64,000 nt of DNA, taken from contig JAEYRV010000053.1 in NCBI GenBank assembly GCA_023435305.1, positions 64,762 to 128,761 of the forward strand. The letters are read 5' to 3'. This DNA is from Bacillota bacterium (GTDB lineage Bacteria > Bacillota > Clostridia > Acetivibrionales > DTU013). Positions 5,711-48,506 of the stretch are shown here, in pieces (positions within the stretch are counted from its first letter, which is position 1; each line of letters starts with the position of its first letter). Position numbers and translations under genes: made by a program. The notes under the pieces were generated by a model. The model made no database searches. It was not told the origin of the DNA and saw nothing but the letters and a program-made list of their open reading frames with translations.

Positions 5711-6661
5711 CTACACTTGTGATGTTTTCATATATAGAACATGCTCTTTATTGTAGCTGCGTATCCCCCTCCTGATTATTACAGGCATGATAAGATAACG
5801 AAATAGCGCATTGCCTGGATGCAGCCACTCCTTATGGTAAATGGGTGGCATGACCGGTGGTTCTGAATCCATTCCAGCTGAAATTGTGGATAATGAGCAA
5901 CCCTCATCGCTGCCCAATTTTGCGATCACCTCTCCGGCTGCATTTGTGATCAGAGATCCGCCCATCAGCCTGAAGCTTTCATTAATGGCTTTGACTCCGA
6001 TGCCGCCTTTGAATTCAGGGAACGATCCGACAGCGTTTATATATATGGTAGGTACTCTCAAATATTTAGAATATGCAGAAGTAACTGTATATGGCTGTTG
6101 ATCAAAATGTGTCAGGTCTTTTTCAGATATTTGGGCGCTGGTTTTATAAGGAGCAGGACTTGCATGGGGCATCAGCATGAAGTCAATGCCGGCGGCCTTC
6201 ATTCGTTGAAGTCTCCCGGCATAATGGTTGTCAGCGCATAAGCCTATCCCGATCCTTCCGATGTCGGTATCTATAAAAGTATCACCGGTACAGCGCTTGA
6301 AACAGTATGCTTCTGCATTTTCCTTGCGGATTATGCCGCATATATTTCCTTTTGGGCCGCTTAACAGGTATGAGTTATAAAAATCCCTGCCATCAGTCTC
6401 TATAAATCCAGCTCCTATGTATATCCCCAGCTGTGCAGAAAGCCCGCAAGCCCATTTGACGGTCTTCCCATCCGCTGCCTCGGCATATTGCCAGATAGAC
6501 TCGTTGGGAATATAACCGCAGCCGGAAAGCTCTGGCAGTACTGCAATATCAGCTTCTTGAGCTGCTGCTTGTTCAATCATTGAAGCAGCCTTGATGTATC
6601 CTGCCGCCTGTTCCTCGTAATAGTTTTTCAGCTGTATCATGGCGATTTTTACATTTTTCAT
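5711..6661 (-). CDS. Carbon-nitrogen hydrolase (nitrilase superfamily) protein
   Basis: 316 aa. The Glu motif VLPELSGCGY and the Cys motif IGIGLCADNHY are characteristic of the CN-hydrolase E-K-C triad. A GGAGG RBS precedes the ATG at 6661. Confidence 0.8.
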   Translation of the reverse strand: MKNVKIAMIQLKNYYEEQAAGYIKAASMIEQAAAQEADIAVLPELSGCGYIPNESIWQYAEAADGKTVKWACGLSAQLGIYIGAGFIETDGRDFYNSYLLSGPKGNICGIIRKENAEAYCFKRCTGDTFIDTDIGRIGIGLCADNHYAGRLQRMKAAGIDFMLMPHASPAPYKTSAQISEKDLTHFDQQPYTVTSAYSKYLRVPTIYINAVGSFPEFKGGIGVKAINESFRLMGGSLITNAAGEVIAKLGSDEGCSLSTISAGMDSEPPVMPPIYHKEWLHPGNALFRYLIMPVIIRRGIRSYNKEHVLYMKTSQV

Positions 6662-6674
6662 GTGCAGCCTCCTT

Positions 6675-6722
6675 ACAGAACATTGTTCTTTAATTATATT
6701 CTACAGAACATTGTTCTGTCAA
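6675..6722 (-). promoter_or_regulatory. Sigma-A-type promoter with two palindromic operators (probable TetR sites) for the hydrolase-TetR operon
   Basis: On the minus strand the promoter reads TTGACA (6717-6722), an 18 bp spacer, then TATAAT (6693-6698). A perfect 8-1-8 palindrome, ACAGAACATTGTTCTGT (6703-6719), fills the spacer. A second copy, ACAGAACATTGTTCT (6675-6689), sits between the -10 box and the RBS. Confidence 0.65.
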
Positions 6723-6918
6723 TATGATATGGTGCCAGGAGTACCAATCGGATGGTTATTAAACAGTACGTGCCAATAAGTGTCTGGCTCCCGTGCATGA
6801 CATAACATTCAATTTTATGATATTATATGGATATTGATGTAAAGCGTTTTTTTGTTAATAACGTCCTAATGGTATAAACCATCGTATATCTATATATTGA
6901 ATAATATAAAAGGCAGAA

Positions 6919-8340
6919 ATGGTTATGAAAAAGTATATTTTTGCTGTGCTCGTATATGCGCTGCTTCTGACGGGTGCCAGCGATTCATTTGCAGTCGGAC
7001 TGCAGACCAGGGGTATTGACGGATACACCGGAGATATCGACGCATATATGGAAACATCGATGAAGCAGGCTGGAATACATAATTTGTCGATCGGAATAGT
7101 CAGGAATGGGGAAGTAGTTTACCTGCGGGATTATGGAAGATCGCCGGACAGCGGGGACATTATTTATCCGATCGGTTCGCTGAGTAAAATGTTCACGGCT
7201 CTTGCTGTCAGGCAATTGATAAATGACGGCAAACTGAAAGAAGATGCACCTGTTGGCCAGTATCTTCCTGGCTTTAGTGTCAGCTATCAAGGAAATGATG
7301 CAGTTGTAACGATCGGGCAGCTGATTAGACATACAAGCGGCATTTCGGTGATCGACGGCGGTATGCCGTACATCTATAAAGCCGGACACTCACTGTCTGA
7401 TATCGTACAAAAGTCTCTGGACCTGAAGCTGAACAGCAAACCAGGGACTGTATATGAATACTCCAACCTGAATTACATATTTCTTGGAAGGATCGTCGAG
7501 GTGGTTTCGGGGCGCTCGTATATGGATTATGTAAATGAGAACATTCTCGAACCGCTCCGTATGGAACACACCTTCCCAACTGATGCGGGGCTTGAGGACG
7601 GAAAACACATAAAAGGGCATATGCCATTTTATGGGGCGCAGGTTCCCGTATCATACCGCATTTCTGCCGGGGATTCACCTGCCGGAGGTTTCCTTTCAAC
7701 GGCAGAGGACCTTTGCCGCTTTATGATCTGTTATCAGCAAGGCAGTCAAACTGGCGAGGGCTCGCTGATCAGCGGGAATGAAGTTTCAGACTGGCAGTCT
7801 TCAGGGTCTGATGTGTATTATGATATTTATTGGACGATAATCAATTGCAAGCCGGGTATGCGTTTCACCCACAACGGATCTCTGCCGGGGTATTCCTCTT
7901 CGGTCCTGCTGGACACCGATTCCGGCTATAGTATTGTGGTACTTGCCAACTCCTTTGATCAAATGAGTCTTCAAATAAACGCCTCCACTCCATGGAGCAT
8001 CGCAGAGGATGTTCTGGAGTACCTGACAACGGGCAGGTTCCCTGAAAGGACCGATGTTAAATATGATTACTCCATCATGATCTGGCTGATATGCCTGCTC
8101 GCGGGACTTTTGGTTTTTACATTGTTCATGCTCCGGTGTAAAATCAAAAACAAACTTATTGTTATCATTTTCCTAGTGATACCAATACTTTGGATCGTTT
8201 TGGTGCCTCTCATATACGACAGCAGTTGGGAATGGCTGCTTGTGTCCAATCCTGCAGTGAATGTCGGACTGCTTTGTATCATGACGACACTTGCTTTGGT
8301 TGGGATAGTGAAAATACTTGGTTCCAGGCACAACACTTAG
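6919..8340 (+). CDS. Serine hydrolase (beta-lactamase/PBP4* family) with a C-terminal multi-TM region
   Basis: 473 aa with a signal peptide. It has the S-x-x-K motif GSLSKMFTA and a YSN-like motif (YEYSNLNY). The C-terminal roughly 90 aa are strongly hydrophobic. Confidence 0.8.
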   Translation: MVMKKYIFAVLVYALLLTGASDSFAVGLQTRGIDGYTGDIDAYMETSMKQAGIHNLSIGIVRNGEVVYLRDYGRSPDSGDIIYPIGSLSKMFTALAVRQLINDGKLKEDAPVGQYLPGFSVSYQGNDAVVTIGQLIRHTSGISVIDGGMPYIYKAGHSLSDIVQKSLDLKLNSKPGTVYEYSNLNYIFLGRIVEVVSGRSYMDYVNENILEPLRMEHTFPTDAGLEDGKHIKGHMPFYGAQVPVSYRISAGDSPAGGFLSTAEDLCRFMICYQQGSQTGEGSLISGNEVSDWQSSGSDVYYDIYWTIINCKPGMRFTHNGSLPGYSSSVLLDTDSGYSIVVLANSFDQMSLQINASTPWSIAEDVLEYLTTGRFPERTDVKYDYSIMIWLICLLAGLLVFTLFMLRCKIKNKLIVIIFLVIPILWIVLVPLIYDSSWEWLLVSNPAVNVGLLCIMTTLALVGIVKILGSRHNT

Positions 8341-36534: not shown

Positions 36535-38874
36535 ATGAAAAAGTTTTGGTCATTGTTGTTGGTTGGATGTCTCGTGCTGTTTATGACTGCCTGTAGTACT
36601 GGGAATCAGGAAGCGGTCGGGGATCAGCCCGGAGAGCAAACTGAAGAACAGAAGGCCCCGGATCAGTCTGTTGTGACGGATCAGCCGGGCGGTGAGACAG
36701 AGCCGCCAGAAGCAGAGCCGCCAGAAGCAGAGCCGCCAGAAGCAGCTCCGCCTGCAGAAGAGGTCCAGCTTACCGAGGAAGAGCAAAAAGGCAATCTTAT
36801 TCCCGGCGGTTACTTCAACAAAATCGATAACAAGTGGGGCCTGTACAAGGAATCAGGCGGACAGGGATCCACAGCAGTGAAGGATGGGCAGCTTGAGGTG
36901 ACCATTGAAAAGATCGGCACGGTAAAGCACGCCGTACAGGTATATTGCGACGGCTTCGAAGTGCTGCAGAATGCAGAGTATAAAGTGGCATTCGATATGA
37001 AGTCGAGTGTTGACAGGGTAATCGATTGGCGCATACAGATCAATGGCGGAGATTACCATGCTTATACAGGCCAGGAGGATGTGAAGGTAACCTCGGAAAT
37101 GAAGCATTATGAGTTTACTTTCACGATGGAGGAAGCATCGGACCCGGCTCCAAGGTTCTGCTTCAATATGGGCTTTCATGAGCCTGACGGGGAGCTTGGC
37201 GCACATACTGTCATTATAGATAATGTGGAACTGATGGTATTGGATGATTCAAAAGCTCAAACCATATCTTCCGGGGATGTCGGACCTGAAATAAACATTA
37301 ATCAGATAGGATACCGGACAGGAGACAAGAAGACTGCAATTTTCCGCGACAGCAGCAAGGATACGAGATTTGATGTTGTGGATGTAAAGACCGGGAAAAC
37401 AGTGTTCACAGGGAATGTGTCCGGCGCCGTACAAACCGCAAGTGCAGGAGAGACGGTAGCCTATGGCGATTTCTCCAGTGTGAATGTGCCCGGTAAATAC
37501 AAGATAACAGCTGCCAATAGCGGTGAATCATATGAATTCGAGATAGCTGATGATGTTTACAGCGATATATTTGCAGATACTATAAAAATGCTGTACATGC
37601 AGCGCTGCGGAAGCAATCTGGACAAGAAGCATGCAGGTGATTTCGCCCATAAAGTCTGCCATACACAGAAGGCAACTGTTTACGGCACGAAGATCACAAA
37701 GGATGTTTCGGGCGGATGGCATGATGCAGGAGACTTCGGACGCTATGTGGTGCCGGGTTCGAAGGCTGTTGCCGATTTACTTCTGGCTTATGAGGATTAC
37801 AGTGCGATTTTCAGTGACAGCGTCGGTATTCCTGAAAGCGGAAACGGCATTCCCGATGTACTTGATGAGGCCAGATATGAACTTGAATGGATGCTGAAGA
37901 TGCAGGATGAGAAATCGGGCGGTGTGTACCACAAGGTAACGGGTTTGAATTTTGAAGGCAATGTTATGCCTGATACGGTCAAGGATGATTTGTATATCAT
38001 GCCAATCTCCAACTGTGCAACAGGCGATTTTGCTGCTGTTATGGCAATGGCTGCAAGAATATATGAGAAATTTGATGCTGCTTTTGCAAAGAAATGCCTT
38101 GCCGCAGCAAAAAATGCGCTTACATATATGGAAGGCAGTGAAAATAAAGGCGGCTATAAGAATCCGAATGATGTTCTCACCGGAGCATACCCGGACGAAG
38201 AGGATGCAGATGAGTATTTCTGGGCTTTGGCAGAGATTTACAAAACCACAGGCGACGCTGCTTTCAACAAGAAGCTGAGCTCGGTGGACATAGCATCACT
38301 TGAAAGAGGTCTGGGCTGGGAGGCAGTTGACCTGTATGGCTGCTATGCATACCTTACCTCAAAAAATCAGGATGCAGGTTTGGCAAACAAGATAAAGGAC
38401 AAATTCAATACCTATATTGCATCTATCGAGAAAAATGTGCAAAATGAAGGTTATTTCTCCACAATGGGTGCGGTTTATCCTTGGGGAAGCAATATGACAA
38501 TTGCCAACAACGGTGCGGTCGTTCTGATGGCAAACAAAGTGCTTGGAAAGGATACCGAACTGGCACAGAAGCAGCTTGATTACTTGCTTGGAGCGAACCC
38601 GACATCATACTGCTTTGTAACCGGATACGGCACACAGACGCCGGATGATACTCACCACAGACCATCCATGGTGTTGAAGAAGACAATGAAGGGTATGCTG
38701 GTAGGCGGTGCAAATTCCAACCTTGAGGATCCGTATGCAAAGAACGTGCTTGCTGACAAGCCAGCAGCAAAATGCTATACAGACAATTCTCAGAGCTTTT
38801 CATGCAATGAGGTGACGATTTACTGGAATTCACCGCTTGTTTATCTGCTGGCGGGTTTGCAGGCTGATAAATAG
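36535..38874 (+). CDS. Glycoside hydrolase family 9 endoglucanase lipoprotein with a CBM4/9-like module and an Ig-like (CelD_N) domain
   Basis: 779 aa. The lipobox is LVLFMTAC, followed by a (PEAEP)n linker and a CBM-like module. The Ig-like segment is ININQIGYRTGDKKTAIF. GH9 motifs are DVSGGWHDAGDFGRYV, DEARYELEWMLKMQ, HHRPS and NEVTIYWNSPLVYLL. Confidence 0.88.
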   Translation: MKKFWSLLLVGCLVLFMTACSTGNQEAVGDQPGEQTEEQKAPDQSVVTDQPGGETEPPEAEPPEAEPPEAAPPAEEVQLTEEEQKGNLIPGGYFNKIDNKWGLYKESGGQGSTAVKDGQLEVTIEKIGTVKHAVQVYCDGFEVLQNAEYKVAFDMKSSVDRVIDWRIQINGGDYHAYTGQEDVKVTSEMKHYEFTFTMEEASDPAPRFCFNMGFHEPDGELGAHTVIIDNVELMVLDDSKAQTISSGDVGPEININQIGYRTGDKKTAIFRDSSKDTRFDVVDVKTGKTVFTGNVSGAVQTASAGETVAYGDFSSVNVPGKYKITAANSGESYEFEIADDVYSDIFADTIKMLYMQRCGSNLDKKHAGDFAHKVCHTQKATVYGTKITKDVSGGWHDAGDFGRYVVPGSKAVADLLLAYEDYSAIFSDSVGIPESGNGIPDVLDEARYELEWMLKMQDEKSGGVYHKVTGLNFEGNVMPDTVKDDLYIMPISNCATGDFAAVMAMAARIYEKFDAAFAKKCLAAAKNALTYMEGSENKGGYKNPNDVLTGAYPDEEDADEYFWALAEIYKTTGDAAFNKKLSSVDIASLERGLGWEAVDLYGCYAYLTSKNQDAGLANKIKDKFNTYIASIEKNVQNEGYFSTMGAVYPWGSNMTIANNGAVVLMANKVLGKDTELAQKQLDYLLGANPTSYCFVTGYGTQTPDDTHHRPSMVLKKTMKGMLVGGANSNLEDPYAKNVLADKPAAKCYTDNSQSFSCNEVTIYWNSPLVYLLAGLQADK

Positions 38875-39020: not shown

Positions 39021-40199
39021 TCAGTGATGGAACAGCCTGATACCCGTAAATGACATTACCATGCCATATTTGTCGCAGCACTCTACTACCAGATCATCCC
39101 TGACAGAGCCGCCCGGCTGGGCAATATAGCGCACTCCGCTCTTGTGTGCTCTCTCGATGTTGTCGGAGAAGGGGAAGAATGCATCCGAGCCAAGAGTTAC
39201 GTCCTGCATGTTATTCAGCCAGGCTTTTTTCGCTTCTCTGGAGAATACTTCCGGCCTGACCTTGAAACGCTTCTGCCATTCGCCGTCTCTGAGGACATCC
39301 TCGTATTCGTCGCCTATATATACATCGATGGTATTGTCACGGTCTGCCCTTCCGAGAGAATCAACGAATTGCAGGCCAAGGACCTGGGGCGACTGGCGGA
39401 GGAACCAATTGTCCGCCTTGCTGCCGGCCAGTCTGGTGCAGTGGATCCTGGACTGCTGGCCCGCGCCTATGCCTATTGCCTGGCCGTCCTTTACATAGCA
39501 CACAGAATTTGATTGTGTATATTTCAGCGTTATCAAAGCTATTTTCATATCTGTCAGCGCGCTGTCAGGTATATCTTTATTTGCTGTGACAATATTCGAT
39601 AGAAGGCCGCTGTTTATATCGAGCTCATTACGGCCCTGTTCAAATGTGATTCCATAGACCTGTTTTCTTTCGATGGGATCGGGTGTGTATTGCGGATCGA
39701 TTTCAATCACGTTGTAATTGCCGCCCTTCTTGGATTTGAGGATTTCAAGGGCTTCATCCGTGTATCCGGGTGCGATCACACCATCGGACACTTCTCTTTT
39801 TATCAGTCTTGCCGTATCCGAATCGCATACATCTGAAAGCGATACAAAGTCACCGAAGGAAGACATTCTGTCAGCGCCTCTGGCTCTTGCATACGCGCAT
39901 GCCAGCGGAGATAATTCACCAAGGTCATCCACCCAGTAAATCCTCGCGAGGGTATCGTTTAATGGAAGTCCGACAGCAGCGCCGGCTGGTGATACATGCT
40001 TGAAGGATGTGGCAGACGGCAGGCCTGTCGCGGCTTTCAGTTCCTTCACCAGCTGCCAGCCGTTGAAGGCATCGAGGAAGTTGATATACCCGGGTTTTCC
40101 GTTCAGGACCTTTACAGGCAGCTGGCCGCCGTCGGCCATATAGATCCTGGATGGTTTCTGATTGGGATTACAGCCATATTTCAATTCCATTTCGTTCAT
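39021..40199 (-). CDS. purH: Phosphoribosylaminoimidazolecarboxamide (AICAR) formyltransferase, stand-alone AICARFT-type PurH
   Basis: 392 aa. …LKYGCNPNQ…SFKHVSPAGAAVG…GSDAFFPFSDNIERAHKSGVRYIAQPGGSVRDD… matches the AICARFT half of PurH. There is no MGS-like IMP cyclohydrolase domain. Confidence 0.88.
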   Translation of the reverse strand: MNEMELKYGCNPNQKPSRIYMADGGQLPVKVLNGKPGYINFLDAFNGWQLVKELKAATGLPSATSFKHVSPAGAAVGLPLNDTLARIYWVDDLGELSPLACAYARARGADRMSSFGDFVSLSDVCDSDTARLIKREVSDGVIAPGYTDEALEILKSKKGGNYNVIEIDPQYTPDPIERKQVYGITFEQGRNELDINSGLLSNIVTANKDIPDSALTDMKIALITLKYTQSNSVCYVKDGQAIGIGAGQQSRIHCTRLAGSKADNWFLRQSPQVLGLQFVDSLGRADRDNTIDVYIGDEYEDVLRDGEWQKRFKVRPEVFSREAKKAWLNNMQDVTLGSDAFFPFSDNIERAHKSGVRYIAQPGGSVRDDLVVECCDKYGMVMSFTGIRLFHH

Positions 40200-40215: not shown

Positions 40216-40929
40216 TTATACATTTTTATTTATTATTCTGGTTTCATGTCTGCCGGAAGCAATATCTATATACCTGACAAATAGTGAGACCTTGTTGTCA
40301 TCATTCAGACTGTTCCATATCATGCCGGTAAATGTATCGATGTCATCCGAAATACCGATAAGCTTGGGCTCGCCCTCAAAACTCGGCAGCGGATCGCCGT
40401 CTTGCATATAGGTATGGATAAAACGGCCTTCTCCGGCGACGGGGTTCTCATATGCGAAAGTGAACCGGTTACAGCTTTTGGGATTGCCGTTGCTGCTTTT
40501 CAGAATGGACATGGCATAGTTGCAGCTGTTATTTTCAATATGCATTATTCCTGATATGCGGGGAGTGTAGTTGGGACTGTCCGGCTCAAACTCACGGCAC
40601 CTCAAGGACTGCTCGAAGGTCAGCTGCTTGTCCATTCCTGCATAAATGGTGTCTGTCTGGTCACCGTTTGTTACAATTGTTTTATTGCCAAGCACTCTCA
40701 CCGGGGCATAAATTATCAGGCTCGGATCTGACATTTTGGATGGGTCAAAGGCCTGTGTGCGGATACCCGCTCCATCCTGGACAAACACTCTGTTTCTGCT
40801 GTTAGTGCTCCTGCCCATTATAAAGTACGCCGTCACTGCCTGGTTTCCATCCTGCGACCTGCCTATAACAATTCCTCGGCCGGGATATGAGTTTGATTTG
40901 AGCTCATGCTCAAGTGACATAATCTTCAT
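40216..40929 (-). CDS. purO: IMP cyclohydrolase, PurO-like family
   Basis: 237 aa. …NSYPGRGIVIGRSQDGNQAVTAYFIMGRSTNSRNRVF… matches the archaeal-type IMP cyclohydrolase family. It lies directly upstream of purH. Confidence 0.8.
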   Translation of the reverse strand: MKIMSLEHELKSNSYPGRGIVIGRSQDGNQAVTAYFIMGRSTNSRNRVFVQDGAGIRTQAFDPSKMSDPSLIIYAPVRVLGNKTIVTNGDQTDTIYAGMDKQLTFEQSLRCREFEPDSPNYTPRISGIMHIENNSCNYAMSILKSSNGNPKSCNRFTFAYENPVAGEGRFIHTYMQDGDPLPSFEGEPKLIGISDDIDTFTGMIWNSLNDDNKVSLFVRYIDIASGRHETRIINKNV

Positions 40930-40950: not shown

Positions 40951-41078
40951 AAAAATAAAAAACGCCTGGACAAACTATAATGTTTGCCCAGACGGTCGGC
41001 TCAGAAATATGCGCGCTCCCTGCAGGTCAACCTGCCACATCCTGTATTTGGATGCTTTCCGTCAGTTGCGCGGCCCAT
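40951..41078 (-). promoter_or_regulatory. ZTP (pfl-motif) riboswitch with expression-platform terminator
   Basis: The minus-strand RNA reads …GGGCCGCGCAACUGACGGAAAGC…GGAGCGCGC…GAGCCGACCGUCUGGGCAAAC… The ACUGACGGAA and CCGACCGUCUGGGCA blocks match the two conserved ZTP sub-domains, with a GACGG/CCGUC pseudoknot. The 3' block overlaps the terminator GUCUGGGCAAAC-auuauag-UUUGUCCAGGC-UUUUUUAUUUUUU. Confidence 0.8.
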
Positions 41079-41281
41079 ATGAATAATTTACATTATTGAT
41101 AAAAAAATTTCAAGCTATTTTATCATACTCAGGACTTTGATTTTACCTTTTCTGCGGACGAAACCTTATTGGCGAGGTACTTGACATAAAATATCTCTTG
41201 ACAATTTTTGCATTATTAAGTAGGATGATAAGGAAATAATTGTTGCAGTTAAATTCTTATGTGATTTAAGGGGGATGGAGT

Positions 41282-41691: not shown

Positions 41692-41735
41692 TGCTGCATG
41701 TCCGGTGAGGCCGGCCGCACTGGCCACGCTGGCGT

Positions 41736-41830
41736 CACTGACCGCGGATGCCATACAGACTGCGCATGCCTCCCTGACCGCGGATGCCGTACAGACTGCG
41801 CATGCGTCACTGACCGCGCATGCCGTAAAA
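41736..41830. repeat. GC-rich 36-bp tandem repeat, about 2.6 copies
   Basis: CACTGACCGCGGATGCCATACAGACTGCGCATGCCT (41736-41771), a near-identical copy at 41772-41807, and a partial third copy. Confidence 0.9.
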
Positions 41831-41913
41831 ATTCGGTATGGAAAGATATGGCCAAGTATGATAAATTAGAAAAAACATGAATAAGCAAAAAAAATGTCGA
41901 AAGGGTTGGTCAA

Positions 41914-42621
41914 ATGTATCTTTTAGCGTTGGCTGTCGCACCCTCCATAGCAATATTGGTCTATATTTATACCAAGGATAAATATGACAAGGAGCCGAAG
42001 AAATTCCTGCTGCTTCTTTTTGGACTCGGCTGTCTGACTGTTATTCCCGTTTGTATTCTGGAACTGATCATACAGGGTGTGGCCGGATTTGACAAATCCC
42101 TGCCCAGCGTGTTCCTGGAAGCATTCTTCGGGGTAGCTCTGATAGAAGAGGGCGTCAAGTACTTTGTCATGAGAACTGCGGCAGGGAAACGCTGCAGACA
42201 TTTTAACCAAATGTTCGACGGCATCGTATATTCTGTTTACATTTCACTGGGCTTTGCAACTGTAGAAAATATACTATATGTATTTCAAAATGGATTCACC
42301 ACCGGTGTTATGAGAGCCCTCACGGCGGTGCCGTGTCATGCGATCACCGCTGTAGCCATGGGATACTATCTGGGGATCGGCAGATTCCGTGTGGACACCC
42401 GGGACAGGAACAAATTCATGGCATTGGGTCTGATCGTGCCTGTGATACTGCACGGTGTATATGATTTTCTTGTTCTTTCGGGAAATACGATCCTTGTGCT
42501 GATTTGTATCCCATTCATAGTATTTATGTATATTTACGCATTCAAAAAAATCAAGAAGCTTGCAGCATACAACCATATGGTCAGGGATGAGGAAACCGGA
42601 AAGATCACCGATCTTTCATGA
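41914..42621 (+). CDS. prsW: PrsW family intramembrane glutamic/metalloprotease
   Basis: 235 aa. It has the motifs EEGVKY and HGVYDF in a multi-TM protein, as in the PrsW family. Confidence 0.8.
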   Translation: MYLLALAVAPSIAILVYIYTKDKYDKEPKKFLLLLFGLGCLTVIPVCILELIIQGVAGFDKSLPSVFLEAFFGVALIEEGVKYFVMRTAAGKRCRHFNQMFDGIVYSVYISLGFATVENILYVFQNGFTTGVMRALTAVPCHAITAVAMGYYLGIGRFRVDTRDRNKFMALGLIVPVILHGVYDFLVLSGNTILVLICIPFIVFMYIYAFKKIKKLAAYNHMVRDEETGKITDLS

Positions 42622-42725
42622 ATATGTGCAGGTCTTATGCCTTTGCTGCCGTTGTTATATACTGTGATTTGTTAGTTGTCTGACTTGTTGGTATTATATA
42701 TGTATCGACAGCAAAGGATTTGATT

Positions 42726-45395
42726 ATGAAGAAACTTGTCATAGGAATACTGGCACATGTTGATGCCGGCAAGACAACCTTATCAGAGAGCCTGCTATAT
42801 TTGAGCGGCAGGATCCGCAAGCTGGGCAGGGTGGACAACAGGGATGCCTATCTGGATAATTATGAGCTTGAAAGGGCCCGGGGCATCACCATTTTTGCCA
42901 AGCAGGCAGTTTTTGATACAGTGGATGCCCGGATCACACTGCTGGATACCCCCGGCCATGTAGATTTTTCAGCCGAAATGGAGAGGACGCTCCAGGTGCT
43001 GGATTATGCGATCCTGGTAATAAGCGGGGCAGACGGCATACAGGGACATACCAGGACCTTGTGGCGCCTGCTTTCTGTCTATCGGATACCTGTCTTTATT
43101 TTCATCAACAAAATGGATCAGAACGGTACGAATAAAGAAATAGTAATGGCCCAATTGAAAAAACAGTTGGATGACAGTTGTATCGAATTCACACAGGATG
43201 AAACAGACCATTTCCGCGAACAGTTGGCCATGTGTGATGAGGCCCTGATGGAGGCTTACCTTGATAAGGGCAAAATCGGGGTCGGTCTTGTCAGGGAAAC
43301 GATAAAAGCGCGTAGAATATTTCCGTGCTTTTTTGGTTCTGCCTTAAAGCTTGAAGGTGTGGATGAGTTCCTGCAGAGTCTGGTGATGTATTCTGATATG
43401 CCCTCGTATCGGGAAGAATTCGGAGCCAAAATATTCAAGATAAACAGAGATGACCAGGGAAACCGCCTTACTCATATGAAAATAACCGGAGGAAGGCTCA
43501 AGGTGAGGGATACATTGGGCAACGGTTCCCAAACGGAGAAGGTCAATCAGATAAGAGTCTATTCGGGACAAAAATTCGAAACGATAAATGAGGCGGAGGC
43601 AGGAACGGTATGTGCGGTGACCGGGCTTACCCGGACCAGGCCGGGAGAAGGTCTGGGAACGGAGGAAACCTCCGGCGCGCCTGTACTGGAGCCTGTGCTG
43701 TCATATCGGATAATACTGCCTGAGGGCTGTGATCCAAGGGTGATGCTCCCCAAGCTTCGCCAGATCGAGGAGGAGGAGCCTGAGCTTCGTGTTGTATGGG
43801 ATGAAAGCCTTAAAGAAATCAGAGCGCAGATAATGGGAGAGGTACAGACAGAGGTACTGCAAAGTACTATACAAAGCAGGTTTGGTATCGAAGCTGGTTT
43901 CGGATCAGGAAGGATACTTTATAAGGAGACCATTGCAGATAAAGTGGAGGGAGTCGGGCATTTTGAACCGCTGAGGCATTATGCGGAGGTGCATTTGCTG
44001 ATGGAGCCGGGAGAGCCCGGAAGCGGCCTTCGTTTTGCAGTTGACTGCAGTGACGATGTATTGGCTAAGAGCTGGAAGAATCTGATCCTGACTCATCTGG
44101 AGGAGAAGGTCCACAAAGGTGTCCTCACAGGCTCTGCAATAACGGATATGAAAATCACTTTAATCTCAGGCAAAGCCCATAACAAGCATACGGAAGGCGG
44201 GGACTTCAGAGAGGCGACTTACAGGGCTGTACGCCAGGGACTTATGGAAGCTCAGTCCGTATTGCTGGAGCCCTTCTACTCTTTCAGCCTTGAGGTTCCC
44301 GATAATCTTATAGGCCGGGCAATGTCCGATATTGAAAAAATGTCAGGAACCTGCAATGTCACCGAGATAACAGGTGAGACGGCAGTGCTTGAAGGGATCG
44401 CACCCGTAGCCGCCATGCAGAATTACCAGAAAGATGTGGCGGCATATTCAAAAGGCCTTGGCAGGCTTTTTTGCAGCCTGATGGGATACAGGCCCTGTCA
44501 TAATACCGAAGAAGTGGCGGAGATGATAGGATACGACCCTGACAGAGATATTGCAAATCCTGCATGGTCGGTATTCTGTGAAAATGGCGCAAGCTTTCCG
44601 GTCAACTGGGACAGTGTTAAAGACTATATGCATGTGGAAAGCTGCTTCAGCAAGAGCAGTGACAGCATCGGGGAAACAGAGCAAAAGCCGGATCCCGAGT
44701 GGAAAGAGGAGCAATGGATCGGCCCCGAGGAGGTCGACAGGATATTCAAGCGCACTTTTTTTGCCAATCAGGGGAAGAAAACCGTCTGGAAGAAGCGCAA
44801 GGCTGCCGCCGGAAGCTATCATGCGCCATCGCCGTCAGCAGATACCGGCAGATCAGGAGAAATCGGGAAGCTGACGGCAGCGAAGAATGAGTATCTGCTT
44901 GTGGATGGCTACAATATTATTTTTGCATGGCCCGAGCTAAAGGAGCTTGCCGATGAGAACATGGACGGGGCCAGATCAAAGCTGATCGATTATCTAAGCA
45001 AATATCAGCACTTCAGAAAATGCCGCATCATTGTCGTGTTTGATGCATACCGCGTGCTCGGGCATAACGAAGAGATGATCGATTATGGCAATGTTTATGT
45101 TGTTTTTACAAGGGAAGCCCAGACAGCAGATCACTTTATCGAGAAATTCGCCCACAGCAACAAGCACAGATATGACATAACTGTTGCGACCTCGGACGGC
45201 CTGCAGCAGATAATAATAAGAGGCGCAGGCTGCGCTGTTATTTCTGCCAGAGACTTGAAGGAAGAGCTCATCAGCGCTGATAGGAAAATAATGCAGGCAT
45301 ATCATGAAAAACAGCAGCCGGGACGCAATTATATCGGAGATGTGCTGCCCGATGAGAAAAAGCAGCAGATCGAAGAAATCACAAAGGATGAATGA
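42726..45395 (+). CDS. EF-G/TetM-like translational GTPase fused to a C-terminal YacP/Rae1-type NYN ribonuclease domain
   Basis: About 889 aa. The N-terminal roughly 640 aa are collinear with TetM/EF-G-type GTPases: G1 AHVDAGKT, G2 RGITI, G3 DTPGH, G4 NKMD, then domain II-V-like sequence. After a basic linker of about 90 aa (…KKTVWKKRK…), residues from about nt 44889 read EYLLVDGYNIIFAWPELK…IIVVFDAY…TADHFIE…VATSDGLQQIIIRGAG. That segment is collinear with B. subtilis YacP (LLVDGYNMIGAW…VVFDA…TADERIE…VATSD). I prefer the ATG at 42726 (AAAGGA RBS); the ORF opens at 42720. Confidence 0.85.
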   Translation: MKKLVIGILAHVDAGKTTLSESLLYLSGRIRKLGRVDNRDAYLDNYELERARGITIFAKQAVFDTVDARITLLDTPGHVDFSAEMERTLQVLDYAILVISGADGIQGHTRTLWRLLSVYRIPVFIFINKMDQNGTNKEIVMAQLKKQLDDSCIEFTQDETDHFREQLAMCDEALMEAYLDKGKIGVGLVRETIKARRIFPCFFGSALKLEGVDEFLQSLVMYSDMPSYREEFGAKIFKINRDDQGNRLTHMKITGGRLKVRDTLGNGSQTEKVNQIRVYSGQKFETINEAEAGTVCAVTGLTRTRPGEGLGTEETSGAPVLEPVLSYRIILPEGCDPRVMLPKLRQIEEEEPELRVVWDESLKEIRAQIMGEVQTEVLQSTIQSRFGIEAGFGSGRILYKETIADKVEGVGHFEPLRHYAEVHLLMEPGEPGSGLRFAVDCSDDVLAKSWKNLILTHLEEKVHKGVLTGSAITDMKITLISGKAHNKHTEGGDFREATYRAVRQGLMEAQSVLLEPFYSFSLEVPDNLIGRAMSDIEKMSGTCNVTEITGETAVLEGIAPVAAMQNYQKDVAAYSKGLGRLFCSLMGYRPCHNTEEVAEMIGYDPDRDIANPAWSVFCENGASFPVNWDSVKDYMHVESCFSKSSDSIGETEQKPDPEWKEEQWIGPEEVDRIFKRTFFANQGKKTVWKKRKAAAGSYHAPSPSADTGRSGEIGKLTAAKNEYLLVDGYNIIFAWPELKELADENMDGARSKLIDYLSKYQHFRKCRIIVVFDAYRVLGHNEEMIDYGNVYVVFTREAQTADHFIEKFAHSNKHRYDITVATSDGLQQIIIRGAGCAVISARDLKEELISADRKIMQAYHEKQQPGRNYIGDVLPDEKKQQIEEITKDE

Positions 45396-45506
45396 TCATA
45401 CTGACTAAGGCACAAAGTCAGCAATACAGGTTAGGATGGACTTATTGACATAAATACTGATTATCGTTAATCTTAATTTATATCGATGTATTAGCGGGGT
45501 GTTTTA

Positions 45507-48506
45507 ATGGAAGAACGGTATCCGTTCAAATATGATGCTTTCATAAGCTACAGGCACTGTGAGCCTGACAAGAGTGTCGCCGACAGACTCCACAGGATGC
45601 TGGAAGGCTTCAGGATCCCGAAGTCGATAGCGAAGACCTGCGGGCGGAAGCAAATAAAGCGTGTCTTCAGAGACAGGGAGGAACTCCCTACCTCATCAAA
45701 CCTTGCCGGTAATATTACCGAAGCACTGAAGGACTCGGAGTTCCTGATAGTGATCTGCTCTCCAAGGACACCTGAGTCTCAGTGGGTCTTAAAGGAAATA
45801 GAAGATTTCAAGGCGATCCATGGTCATAACAAGGTACTTGCCCTTTTGATCGAAGGCGAACCAGGAGAGTCATTCCCTGAGCAGCTTTGCTATGTAAAGA
45901 GCAAGGATGTGTACGGGGATGGGAGCGGGGCGGAAGAAGTAATACAGGTTGAACCGCTTGCTGCAGATATCAGGGCATCTTCGGAAAAGGAGATGTTCAA
46001 AAAGCTCAGGACAGAAATGCTTCGCCTGCTTGCTCCAATGCTGAACTGCGGGTATGACGATCTGAGGCAGCGCCACAGGGAGCGAAGGATAAAAGCCATA
46101 TTAACGGCTTCAATATCGGTTTCGGCATTTTTCATTGCCTTTGGGGCCTTCAGCATGTATCAGTCAATGGTAATCAGCAAGCAAAATCATGAAATCAGCA
46201 AAAAAAATGAAGAAATAGTTGTACAGATCGAAAAAACGCAGATAAGCCAGTCAAGATATCTTGCTGATATTTCATCCAGACTTTTGAAAGAGGGAGACCG
46301 CTACAGAGCGATCCTGGTAGCCCGTGAAGCTCTGCCGAAGGATCTGGACAACAAGGACAGGCCCTATGTAGAAGAGGCGGAATATGCGCTTGCCCGAGCG
46401 CTGGGAGTCTATGAGATCGATACGATGTACGACATGGACATGGTCCTGGATCACAACAAACCAGTCAGCTACATCGAGCTGAGTCCGGACAGTAAAACAC
46501 TGCTGACATTGTCAGGTGACGGCTATTCACGTATGTGGAATGTGGAGGACGGCAAATGTATAGGTGAGTATTTCACTAATCATTCATCACTGTTCAGCGG
46601 CGATACGATTGAGTTTATTGACAACGGTACAATTGTTTCGGGTAACTACGAAAATATCACTTGTTTCGATATAGAGGGGAATTTAAAGTGGCAGAGGGAG
46701 TTCATAGCAACAAAGATAAGTGTTTCAGGGAACAGAGTTGCCGTTTTGTCATCAAGAGATATTATGGTACTGGATGCATCCACCGGTGATACTATCGTTG
46801 AAATCGACCTGGAAAGTCATATGGACTTCACGGACTTCAGCAGCTTTATAAGCAGTATCAGTTTCAGTGCTGACGGCGGCATGATAGGCATAGGCAGCAA
46901 CTTTGGCAAGGCATTTGTGTTTGAAACAGAGACCGGAAAAATGCTTGAATCATACAGTACTGGCCTGCAGTTTGTGTCAGATCTGGCCTTTTCACCTGAG
47001 GGATACATTGCGGTGGCTTCAACTGAGGGTACTGATGATCTGCTTGGGAGAGGGAACGGTATGCTGGATGTCTATTCGACCCAGGGGGGAGAACCCGGTA
47101 TTTCAATAGCATTCACACATGCGGCAGTTGATAATGTGCAATTTTCTTCTTTTGACACAAATATGATAATTTTAACGGAAGGGGAAAAATTGAATGTTTG
47201 TGATATCAGCAGCGGAAAGGTAGTATATTCCTTTATAAGCGGAGACAATATTACTGACTACGAAGTATATGACGGCTTTATTGTCACATCCTCCAATGAT
47301 GGGACGATAAGATTCTGCTTCATGAAAAACAGCGGGTACGAAAGCGAATGGCACAGGATCACCCGCCCTGAGCCGATAACAGGCATGGAAATCGGCAACG
47401 GCAGTATAGCTATAACATGTCAGTTATCAAAAAAGGTATACATAATGAATGTATTATTCAATGACAATACCATAAAGCTTGCAGATCATAATGACTCTAT
47501 CTCCAGAGCGGATTTTTCTCCTGATGGCAGTATGTCTGTGAGCGCAGGGAATGATAGTGAACTGGTGCTTTGCAGTTTATCTGATAAAAAGATTGTTAAT
47601 TCTGTTTCTCTCGACAGCAGCATAAAAGACTGCAGATTTGTAAAAAACGACAGGATAATTGTAGTTCTTTCAGATGGAGGAGTCATGCTTCTGGACAATG
47701 ATCTGCAGACCATAAAGGAAGAGACTACGGAAAGCATATCATGGGTAAGCTATGGCCCTGATGACACAGCTTTTGCCATATGCTGCGGCAAACAGGTAAC
47801 AGTGTTTTCTTCAGATGACCTCAGGACGATCGCGTCCGTTGAAGCCGGATATTCGGCCTCATGCTCATTTTCTTCCGATAATAAGCTTATGCTTTCCGAC
47901 CGCAACGGCATAGCCAAGCTTGTCGATCTCAATACCGGTCTGGAGACATTGCTGGGCGATGATGCAGGTATGGTCACAGGTGCGGTAAGCGGTGACGGAA
48001 CGAAATATGCATTGGCCTGGGATGATAAAACAATTAAGCTTTACGATACCGTGGACAGAAATAAGGAACCCGTTATTATGAAGGGCGCTGTCAATGATGC
48101 TGTCACACTGATTTTCAGTCCAGACTCCAAATTGCTGTTTGCCGGCTATGACGACTATGGAATCGAAATATTCAACTGCCAGGACGGAAGCCTGCTGACT
48201 GCCATTAGCTCTGATTTCTTCGGGAGCGGTCTGGGAAGAGTCATATTCAGCAGGGATGGCAGCCGTATTGCATGTATCGATAAATCAAAGTACGCTGTTA
48301 TTATGGATTCATCTTCGTATAAAATACTTGCACGGGTATCGATAGCAGATATAGACAGTAATTTTGAAAAAATATTGTCCTACTGGAGCTCGGAGCTGTT
48401 CCTTGCTCCGGTCTATACTACGCAAATGCTTCTGGATGAGGCTGATAAGCAGCTAAATGGCAGGACACTCACTGAGAGAGAAAAGATAGAGATGTTTATA
48501 GAATAG
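45507..48506 (+). CDS. TIR domain, single TM helix and WD40/PD40-like beta-propeller repeat protein
   Basis: 999 aa. The N-terminal TIR_2-like domain is YDAFISYRHCEPDKSVADRL…RDREELP…FLIVICSPRTPESQWVLKEIEDF. A basic stretch, RQRHRERRIK, is followed by the TM helix AILTASISVSAFFIAFGAFSMY (about nt 46095-46160). There are 10 or more propeller-blade-like repeats (SPDSKTLLTLSGDGYSRMWNVEDG, FSPDGSMSVSAGND, FSPDSKLLFAGYDD, FSRDGSRIACIDKS…). Confidence 0.85.
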   Translation: MEERYPFKYDAFISYRHCEPDKSVADRLHRMLEGFRIPKSIAKTCGRKQIKRVFRDREELPTSSNLAGNITEALKDSEFLIVICSPRTPESQWVLKEIEDFKAIHGHNKVLALLIEGEPGESFPEQLCYVKSKDVYGDGSGAEEVIQVEPLAADIRASSEKEMFKKLRTEMLRLLAPMLNCGYDDLRQRHRERRIKAILTASISVSAFFIAFGAFSMYQSMVISKQNHEISKKNEEIVVQIEKTQISQSRYLADISSRLLKEGDRYRAILVAREALPKDLDNKDRPYVEEAEYALARALGVYEIDTMYDMDMVLDHNKPVSYIELSPDSKTLLTLSGDGYSRMWNVEDGKCIGEYFTNHSSLFSGDTIEFIDNGTIVSGNYENITCFDIEGNLKWQREFIATKISVSGNRVAVLSSRDIMVLDASTGDTIVEIDLESHMDFTDFSSFISSISFSADGGMIGIGSNFGKAFVFETETGKMLESYSTGLQFVSDLAFSPEGYIAVASTEGTDDLLGRGNGMLDVYSTQGGEPGISIAFTHAAVDNVQFSSFDTNMIILTEGEKLNVCDISSGKVVYSFISGDNITDYEVYDGFIVTSSNDGTIRFCFMKNSGYESEWHRITRPEPITGMEIGNGSIAITCQLSKKVYIMNVLFNDNTIKLADHNDSISRADFSPDGSMSVSAGNDSELVLCSLSDKKIVNSVSLDSSIKDCRFVKNDRIIVVLSDGGVMLLDNDLQTIKEETTESISWVSYGPDDTAFAICCGKQVTVFSSDDLRTIASVEAGYSASCSFSSDNKLMLSDRNGIAKLVDLNTGLETLLGDDAGMVTGAVSGDGTKYALAWDDKTIKLYDTVDRNKEPVIMKGAVNDAVTLIFSPDSKLLFAGYDDYGIEIFNCQDGSLLTAISSDFFGSGLGRVIFSRDGSRIACIDKSKYAVIMDSSSYKILARVSIADIDSNFEKILSYWSSELFLAPVYTTQMLLDEADKQLNGRTLTEREKIEMFIE

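Follow-up and report, generated by a model that had tools for sequence, protein, structure and literature searches.

The gene at 42726-45395 (+) of a 64,000-nucleotide (nt) stretch of a Bacillota bacterium genome (assembly GCA_023435305.1, contig JAEYRV010000053.1; hereafter the window) encodes a fusion between a translational GTPase and an NYN endoribonuclease domain of the Rae1/YacP type. Specifically, a five-domain GTPase resembling elongation factor G (EF-G) and the Tet proteins (amino acids (aa) 1-593) is followed by a mini-domain, a disordered linker and the NYN domain (aa 723-886). The fusion is genuine, dates far back within Clostridia and occurs very widely, and its GTPase core, whether fused or unfused, is a distinct, uncharacterised translational GTPase subfamily of Firmicutes. 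The first-pass annotation of the window, made from the sequence alone, had suggested a ribosome-delivered, GTP-controlled nuclease, and this is still the natural reading, both modules being complete and their catalytic residues being under strong selection.

The architecture is already in print, so that its existence is not new. Atkinson (2015) listed 'Tet' proteins with NYN_YacP, the C. thermocellum orthologue included (PMC4342817), and Matelska et al. (2017) mentioned 'TetM-NYN_YacP fusion proteins' in some Clostridia, leaving their role open (PMC5499597). The first 280 residues of the A. thermocellus proteins found here (P0062, P0065 and P0066), which are 68% identical to the fusion protein over the full length, equal the displayed part of YP_001036467 in Additional file 8 (PMC4342817). 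No experimental study of the fusion was found in a literature search. This agrees with the first-pass annotation, in which no experimental characterisation of the architecture was known.

According to the open reading frame (ORF) listing of the window, 42720-45395 (+) is the sole long ORF in this region and opens at TTG. Translation from the ATG at 42726 gives 889 codons before a TGA stop codon and an N-terminus (MKK) as in homologues; the N-terminal sequence is MKKLVIGILAHVDAGKT. A protein identical to the fusion protein (P0001) is present in public assemblies. Pfam found both modules in this one ORF, which confirmed the proposed GTPase-NYN fusion, and the G1-G4 and NYN motifs quoted earlier were all in place. 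The G domain (aa 1-222; 42726-43391, +; Pfam GTP_EFTU at 4-222, E-value 1.4e-50) has a reduced G' insert and contains the motifs G1 AHVDAGKT (10-17), G2 RGITI (52-56), G3 DTPGH (74-78), G4 NKMD (128-131) and G5 GSAL (204-207), with the catalytic His78 in G3. EF-G domains II (aa 233-308) and III (aa 322-392), together at 43422-43901 (+), were delimited with Pfam, AlphaFold2 and Foldseek; EF-G_D2 matched 233-308 with an E-value of 4.8e-10, and the EFG_III match at 322-392 was marginal (25.3 bits against a cut-off of 27, E-value 1.6e-05). Domain IV (aa 395-510; 43908-44255, +; EFG_IV, 3.8e-20) has two family-specific tip loops, loop I (G411-H-F-E-P-L-R-H-Y-A-E-V422) and loop III (G482-K-A-H485-N-K487-H488-T489-E-G-G-D493-F-R), and is followed by domain V (aa 512-593; 44259-44504, +; EFG_C, 4.8e-16). 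A family-specific C-terminal mini-domain of about 50 aa (aa 594-646; 44505-44663, +) was recognised from the AlphaFold2 model and from conservation. Its predicted elements are one helix, a beta-hairpin and a pair of short helices (predicted local distance difference test score (pLDDT) ~96), and it had no Pfam match and no PDB sequence match.

The flexible linker (aa 647-722; 44664-44891, +) was assigned on the basis of poor conservation and low pLDDT. Across the family, the segment corresponding to aa 637-722 is 62-141 residues long (median 83). The first-pass annotation had described a basic linker, a description that fits the second half (net charge +6) and not the acidic first half (net charge -5); with 15 K/R and 14 D/E residues, the segment is near neutral overall. 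The alignment revealed a short conserved helix within the linker (aa 664-679; 44715-44762, +), which AlphaFold2 modelled as a helix at 667-678 with low confidence. Its consensus is [DE]E[LIV][DE]xI[FI]xRT[FY]G, with I673 kept in at least 90%, and it occurs in fused members only. The NYN domain (aa 723-886; 44892-45383, +) was assigned from Pfam and from PDB entries 5MQ8 and 5MQ9. The Pfam check proposed for this part of the protein, around residues 720-860, detected NYN_YacP (PF05991) at 724-886 with an E-value of 2.7e-52 and 177.6 bits (cut-off, 24.6), covering profile positions 1-165 of 166.

An AlphaFold2 model built on a 129-sequence alignment had a mean pLDDT of 90.8 and a predicted template modelling score of 0.73 and was confident over 1-646 and 721-860. 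Specifically, pLDDT exceeded 90 over aa 1-646 and reached 94-98 in the NYN domain, and it fell below 50 at 651-655, 657-666 and 678-716, with the weak helix at 667-678 in between. A Foldseek search against the PDB returned EF-G family structures, largely ribosome-bound, as the top matches (E-value ~1e-52, ~680 columns). As modelled, the protein consists of two folded modules joined by a flexible tether.

We searched a protein space of 5.8 billion sequences grouped at 90% identity and found at least 120 clusters with 68-100% full-length identity to the fusion protein; among the matches listed, every one had PF05991 together with EF-G domains. These clusters included A. thermocellus, Desulfosporosinus, Desulfitobacterium, Anaerocolumna and Anaerovoracaceae. 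Additionally, 1.84 billion representatives of 50%-identity clusters were scanned with HMMER, and the best 150 were considered. The fusion was carried by about 130 of them; 129 were 830-960 aa long, nearly all aligned in one stretch over both modules, and their identity to the query was 41-57%. In one genome per GTDB species, a scan with two family-specific domain IV peptides gave at least 600 matches, of which the best 80 were fetched. Each of these 80 loci had exactly one NYN-bearing ORF, namely the GTPase ORF itself, and they came from Lachnospiraceae, Oscillospiraceae, Desulfitobacteriaceae, Anaerovoracaceae, Clostridium, Eubacterium, Fusibacter and other Clostridia. That a sequencing or assembly error had joined two adjacent genes, a possibility raised in the first-pass annotation, is rejected: nothing speaks in its favour, the same uninterrupted ORF was present in 80/80 independent genome loci, and hundreds of clusters from isolates and metagenomes, complete A. 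thermocellus genomes included, also exclude an artefact.

The named carriers belong to at least three orders of Clostridia (NCBI taxonomy), and the proteins retain 68-70% identity across orders, a level that, judged from the sequences, is housekeeping-like constraint. The gene is near-universally single copy and vertically conserved. Carriers include the dominant human-gut genera Roseburia, Blautia, Dorea, Mediterraneibacter, Agathobacter and Intestinimonas. Two carriers were labelled as metagenome-assembled genomes from outside the Firmicutes (CAVIPV010000011.1, Prevotella sp.; P0019, Patescibacteria group bacterium); these labels are probably binning errors, every other carrier being Clostridial.

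Residue conservation was read from alignments of 129-151 sequences, the 129 being 40-88% identical to the query. In the GTPase module, D13, G15, K16, T55, D74-H78, K129 and D131 were invariant in the 129 sequences, and G204 and A206 of G5 were invariant or nearly so. The same was true of the domain IV tip, both in loop I (G411-H-x-E-P-L-x-H-Y-A-E-V) and in loop III (K487-H488-T489...D493-F-R). In the mini-domain, Y603, D608, S615, F617, G621, W628 and H636 were conserved. The NYN motifs LVDGYN (from aa 725), VVFDAY (770), TADHFIE (800) and ATSDG (821) contain the residues D727-G-Y-N730, D773, D802 and D824, all invariant in the 129 sequences, and T795 was invariant or nearly so. The catalytic aspartates of the NYN domain are thus kept among the homologues of the fusion; a lack of such conservation would have counted against the earlier proposal. 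Because catalytic residues are invariant across the family, both enzymatic centres are under purifying selection.

The NYN part matched the B. subtilis YacP/Rae1 crystal sequences (5MQ8 and 5MQ9) with an E-value of 4.5e-25, and 59 of 137 columns (43%) were identical to B. subtilis Rae1. Its D727, D773, D802 and D824 align with Rae1 D7, D53, D81 and D104. In the NYN_YacP signature, a first-strand Asp is followed by GYN and the active site has four or more Asp (PMC5499597); the D-GYN motif and four Asp are present in the fusion, the C-terminal 165 aa of which form, as in Rae1, a full-length NYN_YacP domain. By analogy, the domain is expected to perform metal-dependent endonucleolytic RNA cleavage in a ribosome context. 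Rae1/YacP occurs on its own, at about 170 aa, and is typically encoded in a gltX-cysS-mrnC-rlmB-yacP operon (PMC5499597), whereas in the fusion a covalent tether joins the NYN domain to a 646-aa GTPase and the gene stands alone in varying contexts. The fusion is therefore a Rae1-domain protein and, by context, no canonical Rae1 orthologue. Neither the window nor any of the 84 loci examined (~16 kb each) contained a second NYN ORF.

The GTPase module had been placed in the TetM/TetO class by the first-pass annotation, an assignment that was not borne out. Among NCBIfam models, the best was tet_protect, with 423.8 bits against a cut-off of 775. The other Tet models scored 315/900 (Otr(A)), 291/1100 (TetM/W/O/S), 250/1420 (Tet(M)) and 251/1425 (Tet(Q)), so that the module lay below every curated Tet cut-off, and the EF-G models TIGR00484 and NF009381 gave 300/659.4 and 312.7/583, respectively. 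Against PDB sequences, the GTPase part scored 259.5 bits with TetO, 246.1 with TetM and 236.9 with EF-G, and domains IV-V alone scored 62.5 with EF-G, 61.1 with TetO and 54.9 with TetM. The module shares with Tet(M) and Tet(O) the five-domain EF-G-like layout, the reduced G' insert and one collinear alignment to TetO 1-613, and these proteins are its best-scoring profile and PDB sequence matches. In contrast, its identity to Tet(M) and Tet(W) is only about 30%, and Y506-Y507-S508-P509 of TetO loop III aligns with A484-H485-N486-K487, so that the YYSP sequence is absent, a replacement conserved family-wide. This YYSP loop is the element of TetM and TetO that we take, from cryo-EM work, to dislodge tetracycline. 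Moreover, only about 26 residues of TetO (639 aa) follow the aligned region, where the fusion has the mini-domain instead, and unlike Tet(M) and Tet(O) the fusion is not on mobile elements.

The module resembles EF-G in its fold, matched over the ~680 columns mentioned above, in its intact GTPase motifs and in its five domains, and H485 in loop III aligns with H573 of T. thermophilus EF-G, a translocation-relevant residue. It differs from EF-G in a loop I that is four residues shorter and has its own family-invariant sequence (GHFEPLRHYAEV), in a shorter G' insert, and in the additional C-terminal mini-domain and nuclease. Failing the cut-off tests for both Tet and EF-G, the GTPase is, by sequence comparison, a separate Tet/EF-G-like subfamily.

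These data bear on whether the fusion is a tetracycline ribosomal-protection protein whose RNase domain adds to resistance, as suggested by Atkinson (PMC4342817). The best NCBIfam and PDB matches of the GTPase part are indeed Tet proteins, the Atkinson classifier places the family among the Tet proteins (PMC4342817), and many records carry TetM/TetW/TetO/TetS names. Nevertheless, the scores far below the cut-offs (tet_protect as given above), the low identity to Tet(M) and Tet(W), the equal scores of domains IV-V against EF-G, the replacement of YYSP by A-H-N-K and the chromosomal, non-mobile location make this role scarcely credible. Database names for this family are inconsistent and mostly misleading, ranging from 'TetM/TetW/TetO/TetS family tetracycline resistance ribosomal protection protein' and 'Tetracycline resistance protein TetM from transposon Tn916' to 'elongation factor G', 'small GTP-binding protein' and 'NYN domain-containing protein'. 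The Tet and EF-G names are contradicted by the present results and could inflate resistance-gene counts in gut metagenomes.

A new observation is that Lactobacillaceae chromosomes carry the GTPase core in unfused form as well. In a tblastn search against plasmids, Ligilactobacillus salivarius megaplasmids made up 10 of the 12 rows listed, and 44 Ligilactobacillus records matched in all. The L. salivarius coding sequence is intact and encodes 644 aa with 50% identity to residues 1-638 of the query; the protein shares loop I (GHFEPLRHY) and the mini-domain with the fusion and terminates 7 residues past the latter. When it was used as the query, the 120 clusters listed were mostly 635-665 aa long, with a few fragments, and none had PF05991. 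Chromosomal carriers of the unfused gene were Companilactobacillus, Levilactobacillus, Paucilactobacillus, Lactiplantibacillus and Pediococcus. In the unfused proteins, which have neither linker nor NYN, the C-terminus follows an SVFC motif by a median of 31 residues, and the short 50%-identity-cluster representatives P0255 and P0269 end exactly where these proteins do. Their loop III reads S-[NI]-V-H-[ST] in 39 of 120 (pattern-matched), compared with H-x-K-H-T in fused members. No NYN gene was found near the unfused genes in the Lactobacillaceae loci examined. Since the GTPase core occurs unfused in Lactobacillaceae, the core is taken to be an autonomous ribosome factor and the NYN domain an added effector; by sequence comparison, the GTPase with its mini-domain is an autonomous factor, and the linker with the conserved helix and the NYN domain is a Clostridial addition.

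The unfused Lactobacillaceae versions are variously named TetM, TetO, elongation factor G or 'translation factor GTPase family protein'. On the L. salivarius plasmid NZ_CP117984.1, the unfused gene lies at 5986-7920 (locus L085), and in L. salivarius it is divergent beside a paralogue of rpsN (ribosomal protein S14) and a gene for a 'putative metal homeostasis protein'. The unfused GTPase gene of Companilactobacillus has an HflX gene 6 kb upstream of it.

In its genomic context, the fusion gene looks like a chromosomal gene of housekeeping type that stands by itself. Neighbours were compared by all-against-all clustering of four genes on each side in 79 loci, and no conserved partner or immunity gene was found; the largest cluster (response-regulator-like) covered 13 loci at scattered positions. 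In A. thermocellus and on a 1.2-Mb contig, the gene contexts were wholly different from that in the window. The GC content of the fusion gene is native, without anomaly, no flanking repeats were found around it, and the plasmids with the whole fusion were secondary replicons, 250-520 kb in size, from Monoglobus and Agathobacter; on these grounds, an origin from a mobile element is rejected. Two records from human faeces named 'UNVERIFIED: Bacteriophage sp.' (MT835514.1 and MT835563.1) also hold the fusion. The one examined, MT835514.1, encodes AddAB, CspB protease, FeoB, RsmH, GltX and glycerol kinase, with the fusion between rsmH and gltX. It is a mislabelled bacterial chromosome, and a phage origin is likewise rejected.

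We tentatively propose that the fusion is a GTP-gated nuclease that acts via the ribosomal factor site and cuts messenger RNA (mRNA) on stalled or collided ribosomes as Rae1 does, a reading that we consider plausible although somewhat short of probable. In a translation-dependent reaction, Rae1 cleaves mRNA at stalled or collided ribosomes, feeding transfer-messenger RNA (tmRNA) (PMC12407103, PMC13622287). The fusion would be a single-polypeptide ribosome quality-control enzyme, whose N-terminal 646 residues would form a translational GTPase of EF-G/Tet descent that is active and depends on the ribosome. The GTP form would dock in the factor-binding site, with the distinctive tip of domain IV entering the decoding region. 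The GTPase would serve as sensor and anchor, picking ribosomes whose factor site or A site is accessible through stalling or collision. The flexible tether of about 60-140 residues would carry an active Rae1-type NYN endoribonuclease, which would cut the mRNA on or beside that ribosome. By analogy with Rae1, the cut might fall at the ribosome edge, between the stalled and the trailing ribosome, and the truncated mRNA would then be resolved by trans-translation (tmRNA/SmpB). GTP hydrolysis at the sarcin-ricin loop would release the factor. We infer ribosome binding, the mRNA substrate, the cut position and the coupling to tmRNA.

Several points weigh against this proposal. The substrate (mRNA, ribosomal RNA (rRNA) or transfer RNA (tRNA)) is not readable from the sequence, and some function of the GTPase needs no nuclease, as its unfused relatives make clear. 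In addition, Rae1 cuts at -12, which, judging from EF-G-70S and disome structures, is on the mRNA-exit side of the stalled ribosome and far from that ribosome's own factor site. The tether would then have to bend around the ribosome, unless the factor were bound to the trailing one. From EF-G-70S and disome structures, the mRNA entry channel of the trailing ribosome, near its factor site, abuts the inter-ribosome mRNA. The first-pass annotation had started from the premise that Rae1 acts at the A site, which was revised in 2025-26 in favour of action on collided ribosomes (PMC13622287); co-delivery of both modules to the same site is therefore not the logic of the fusion. According to a preprint by Tetreault et al. 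(2026), Rae1 acts on collided ribosomes and thereby generates tmRNA substrates; its ribosome binding is transient, there is no ribosome-bound Rae1 structure, and the recognition mode is unknown (PMC13622287).

The proposed logic of a ribosome-state sensor combined with an RNA-cleaving or ribosome-splitting module is shared with SmrB of E. coli, Cue2 of yeast and MutS2/RqcU of B. subtilis (PMC13622287), and MutS2 likewise joins an NTPase to a nuclease-type domain. The folds are unrelated, the counterparts being Smr versus NYN and an ABC/MutS ATPase versus a translational GTPase. Moreover, SmrB, Cue2 and MutS2 recognise the 30S disome interface, whereas the fusion is predicted to enter via the GTPase factor-binding site. 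With still more reserve, the fusion may be the first translational GTPase with its own catalytic nuclease, a factor-site-delivered no-go-decay enzyme in which the GTPase licenses the tethered Rae1 cut. How Rae1 is recruited to stalled or collided ribosomes is explicitly an open question, and the fusion suggests one route, a factor entering via the GTPase centre. If this is true, the unfused Lactobacillaceae paralogue would be the same sensor without an attached nuclease, or would work with free Rae1. Non-hydrolysable GTP analogues lock translational GTPases on ribosomes, and the fusion would then lend itself naturally to capturing a Rae1-type nuclease on its substrate (with GDPNP or GDPCP) for structural work. 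The family occurs in hundreds of Clostridial species, including gut genera and the industrial cellulolytic A. thermocellus, and because of this breadth it likely constitutes, within bacterial ribosome quality control, a major branch that is unstudied.

The fusion might instead be an rRNA- or tRNA-directed nuclease that docks on 70S or pre-70S particles, in a maturation or 'test-drive' step or in the decommissioning of ribosomes under starvation. A eukaryotic parallel is the PIN nuclease Nob1, which is aided by the GTPase eIF5B in 18S 3'-end formation. YacP, encoded in an operon with mrnC and rlmB, was first proposed to act in rRNA/tRNA processing (PMC5499597, PMC4342817). Judging from EF-G structures, domain IV would lie beside h44, h18 and h34 of 16S rRNA and the tether would start near the sarcin-ricin loop, and one relative (MT835514.1) lies between rsmH and gltX. 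However, this neighbourhood was not conserved in the 79 loci, and the sole demonstrated substrates of the YacP family are mRNAs on translating ribosomes. An rRNA cutter without a partner inhibitor would also be dangerous, yet there is no conserved partner gene. Taken together, an rRNA or tRNA target appears unlikely.

In the window, the upstream neighbours of the fusion gene encode a PrsW-family protease and a DUF805 protein, and downstream a 999-aa TIR-WD40 protein is followed by an oxidoreductase, a methyl-accepting chemotaxis protein and an AraC regulator. The TIR-WD40 gene (45507-48506, +) starts 111 nt past the fusion gene; its product has a TIR domain (TIR_2, ThsB_TIR) at the N-terminus, along with long WD40 beta-propeller repeats. 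Defence systems often contain TIR domains, and having such a protein as the next gene would fit a conditional translation-shutoff toxin or an anti-phage (abortive infection) effector. The Rae1 authors also speculated that Rae1-type cleavage could hit phage mRNAs (PMC13622287). Against such a role, the adjacency of the TIR-WD40 gene was not conserved elsewhere in the 79 loci, and no PADLOC-DB family matched the fusion or the TIR-WD40 protein at an E-value of 0.001 or below. The near-universal single vertical copy, the identity of 68-70% across orders, the native GC content, the lack of flanking repeats and the mislabelling of the 'phage' record examined argue in the same direction. The translation-shutoff effector named in the first-pass annotation is consequently disfavoured, with no defence match and no conserved partner gene, and we regard a toxin or defence function as very improbable.

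A Shine-Dalgarno sequence (AAAGGA; 42713-42718, +) was read 7 nt before the ATG at 42726. A consensus scan gave a promoter-like site (TTGTTA, 17 nt, TG-TATTAT; 42669-42697, +), which is a pattern match alone. Counted from this site, the predicted 5' untranslated region (UTR) of the fusion gene is about 25 nt, and because of this length there would be no room for a leader peptide or attenuator. An Rfam search of 42400-45700 found no element, with no match at an E-value of 1 or below. A tet(M)-like leader RNA or attenuator is rejected on the basis of the missing Rfam match and the short 5' UTR. No antisense or overlapping ORF within the fusion gene had a Pfam match.

Several other features of the window were observed. 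One of them, a cellulase gene described below, suggests together with the resemblance to genes of A. thermocellus and other Clostridia that the window derives from a cellulolytic Clostridial member. Between the DUF805 and PrsW-family genes, 41696-41840 (+) consists of six tandem 18-nt units, which would have a hexapeptide periodicity if translated and which lie inside ORFs without a Pfam match. On the opposite strand, a ZMP/ZTP (pfl) riboswitch was found at 40979-41079 (-), with 45 bits against a gathering score of 39. Directly downstream of it lies a gene for an archaeal-type inosine monophosphate (IMP) cyclohydrolase (PF07826, PurO-like; 40216-40929, -), followed by an AICARFT-only PurH fragment (PF01808, profile positions 76-311; 39021-40199, -). 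Together, these two genes have the appearance of a split pair for purine biosynthesis that is controlled by ZTP. In addition, 36535-38874 (+) encodes a glycoside hydrolase family 9 (GH9) cellulase with CBM4_9 and CelD_N domains.

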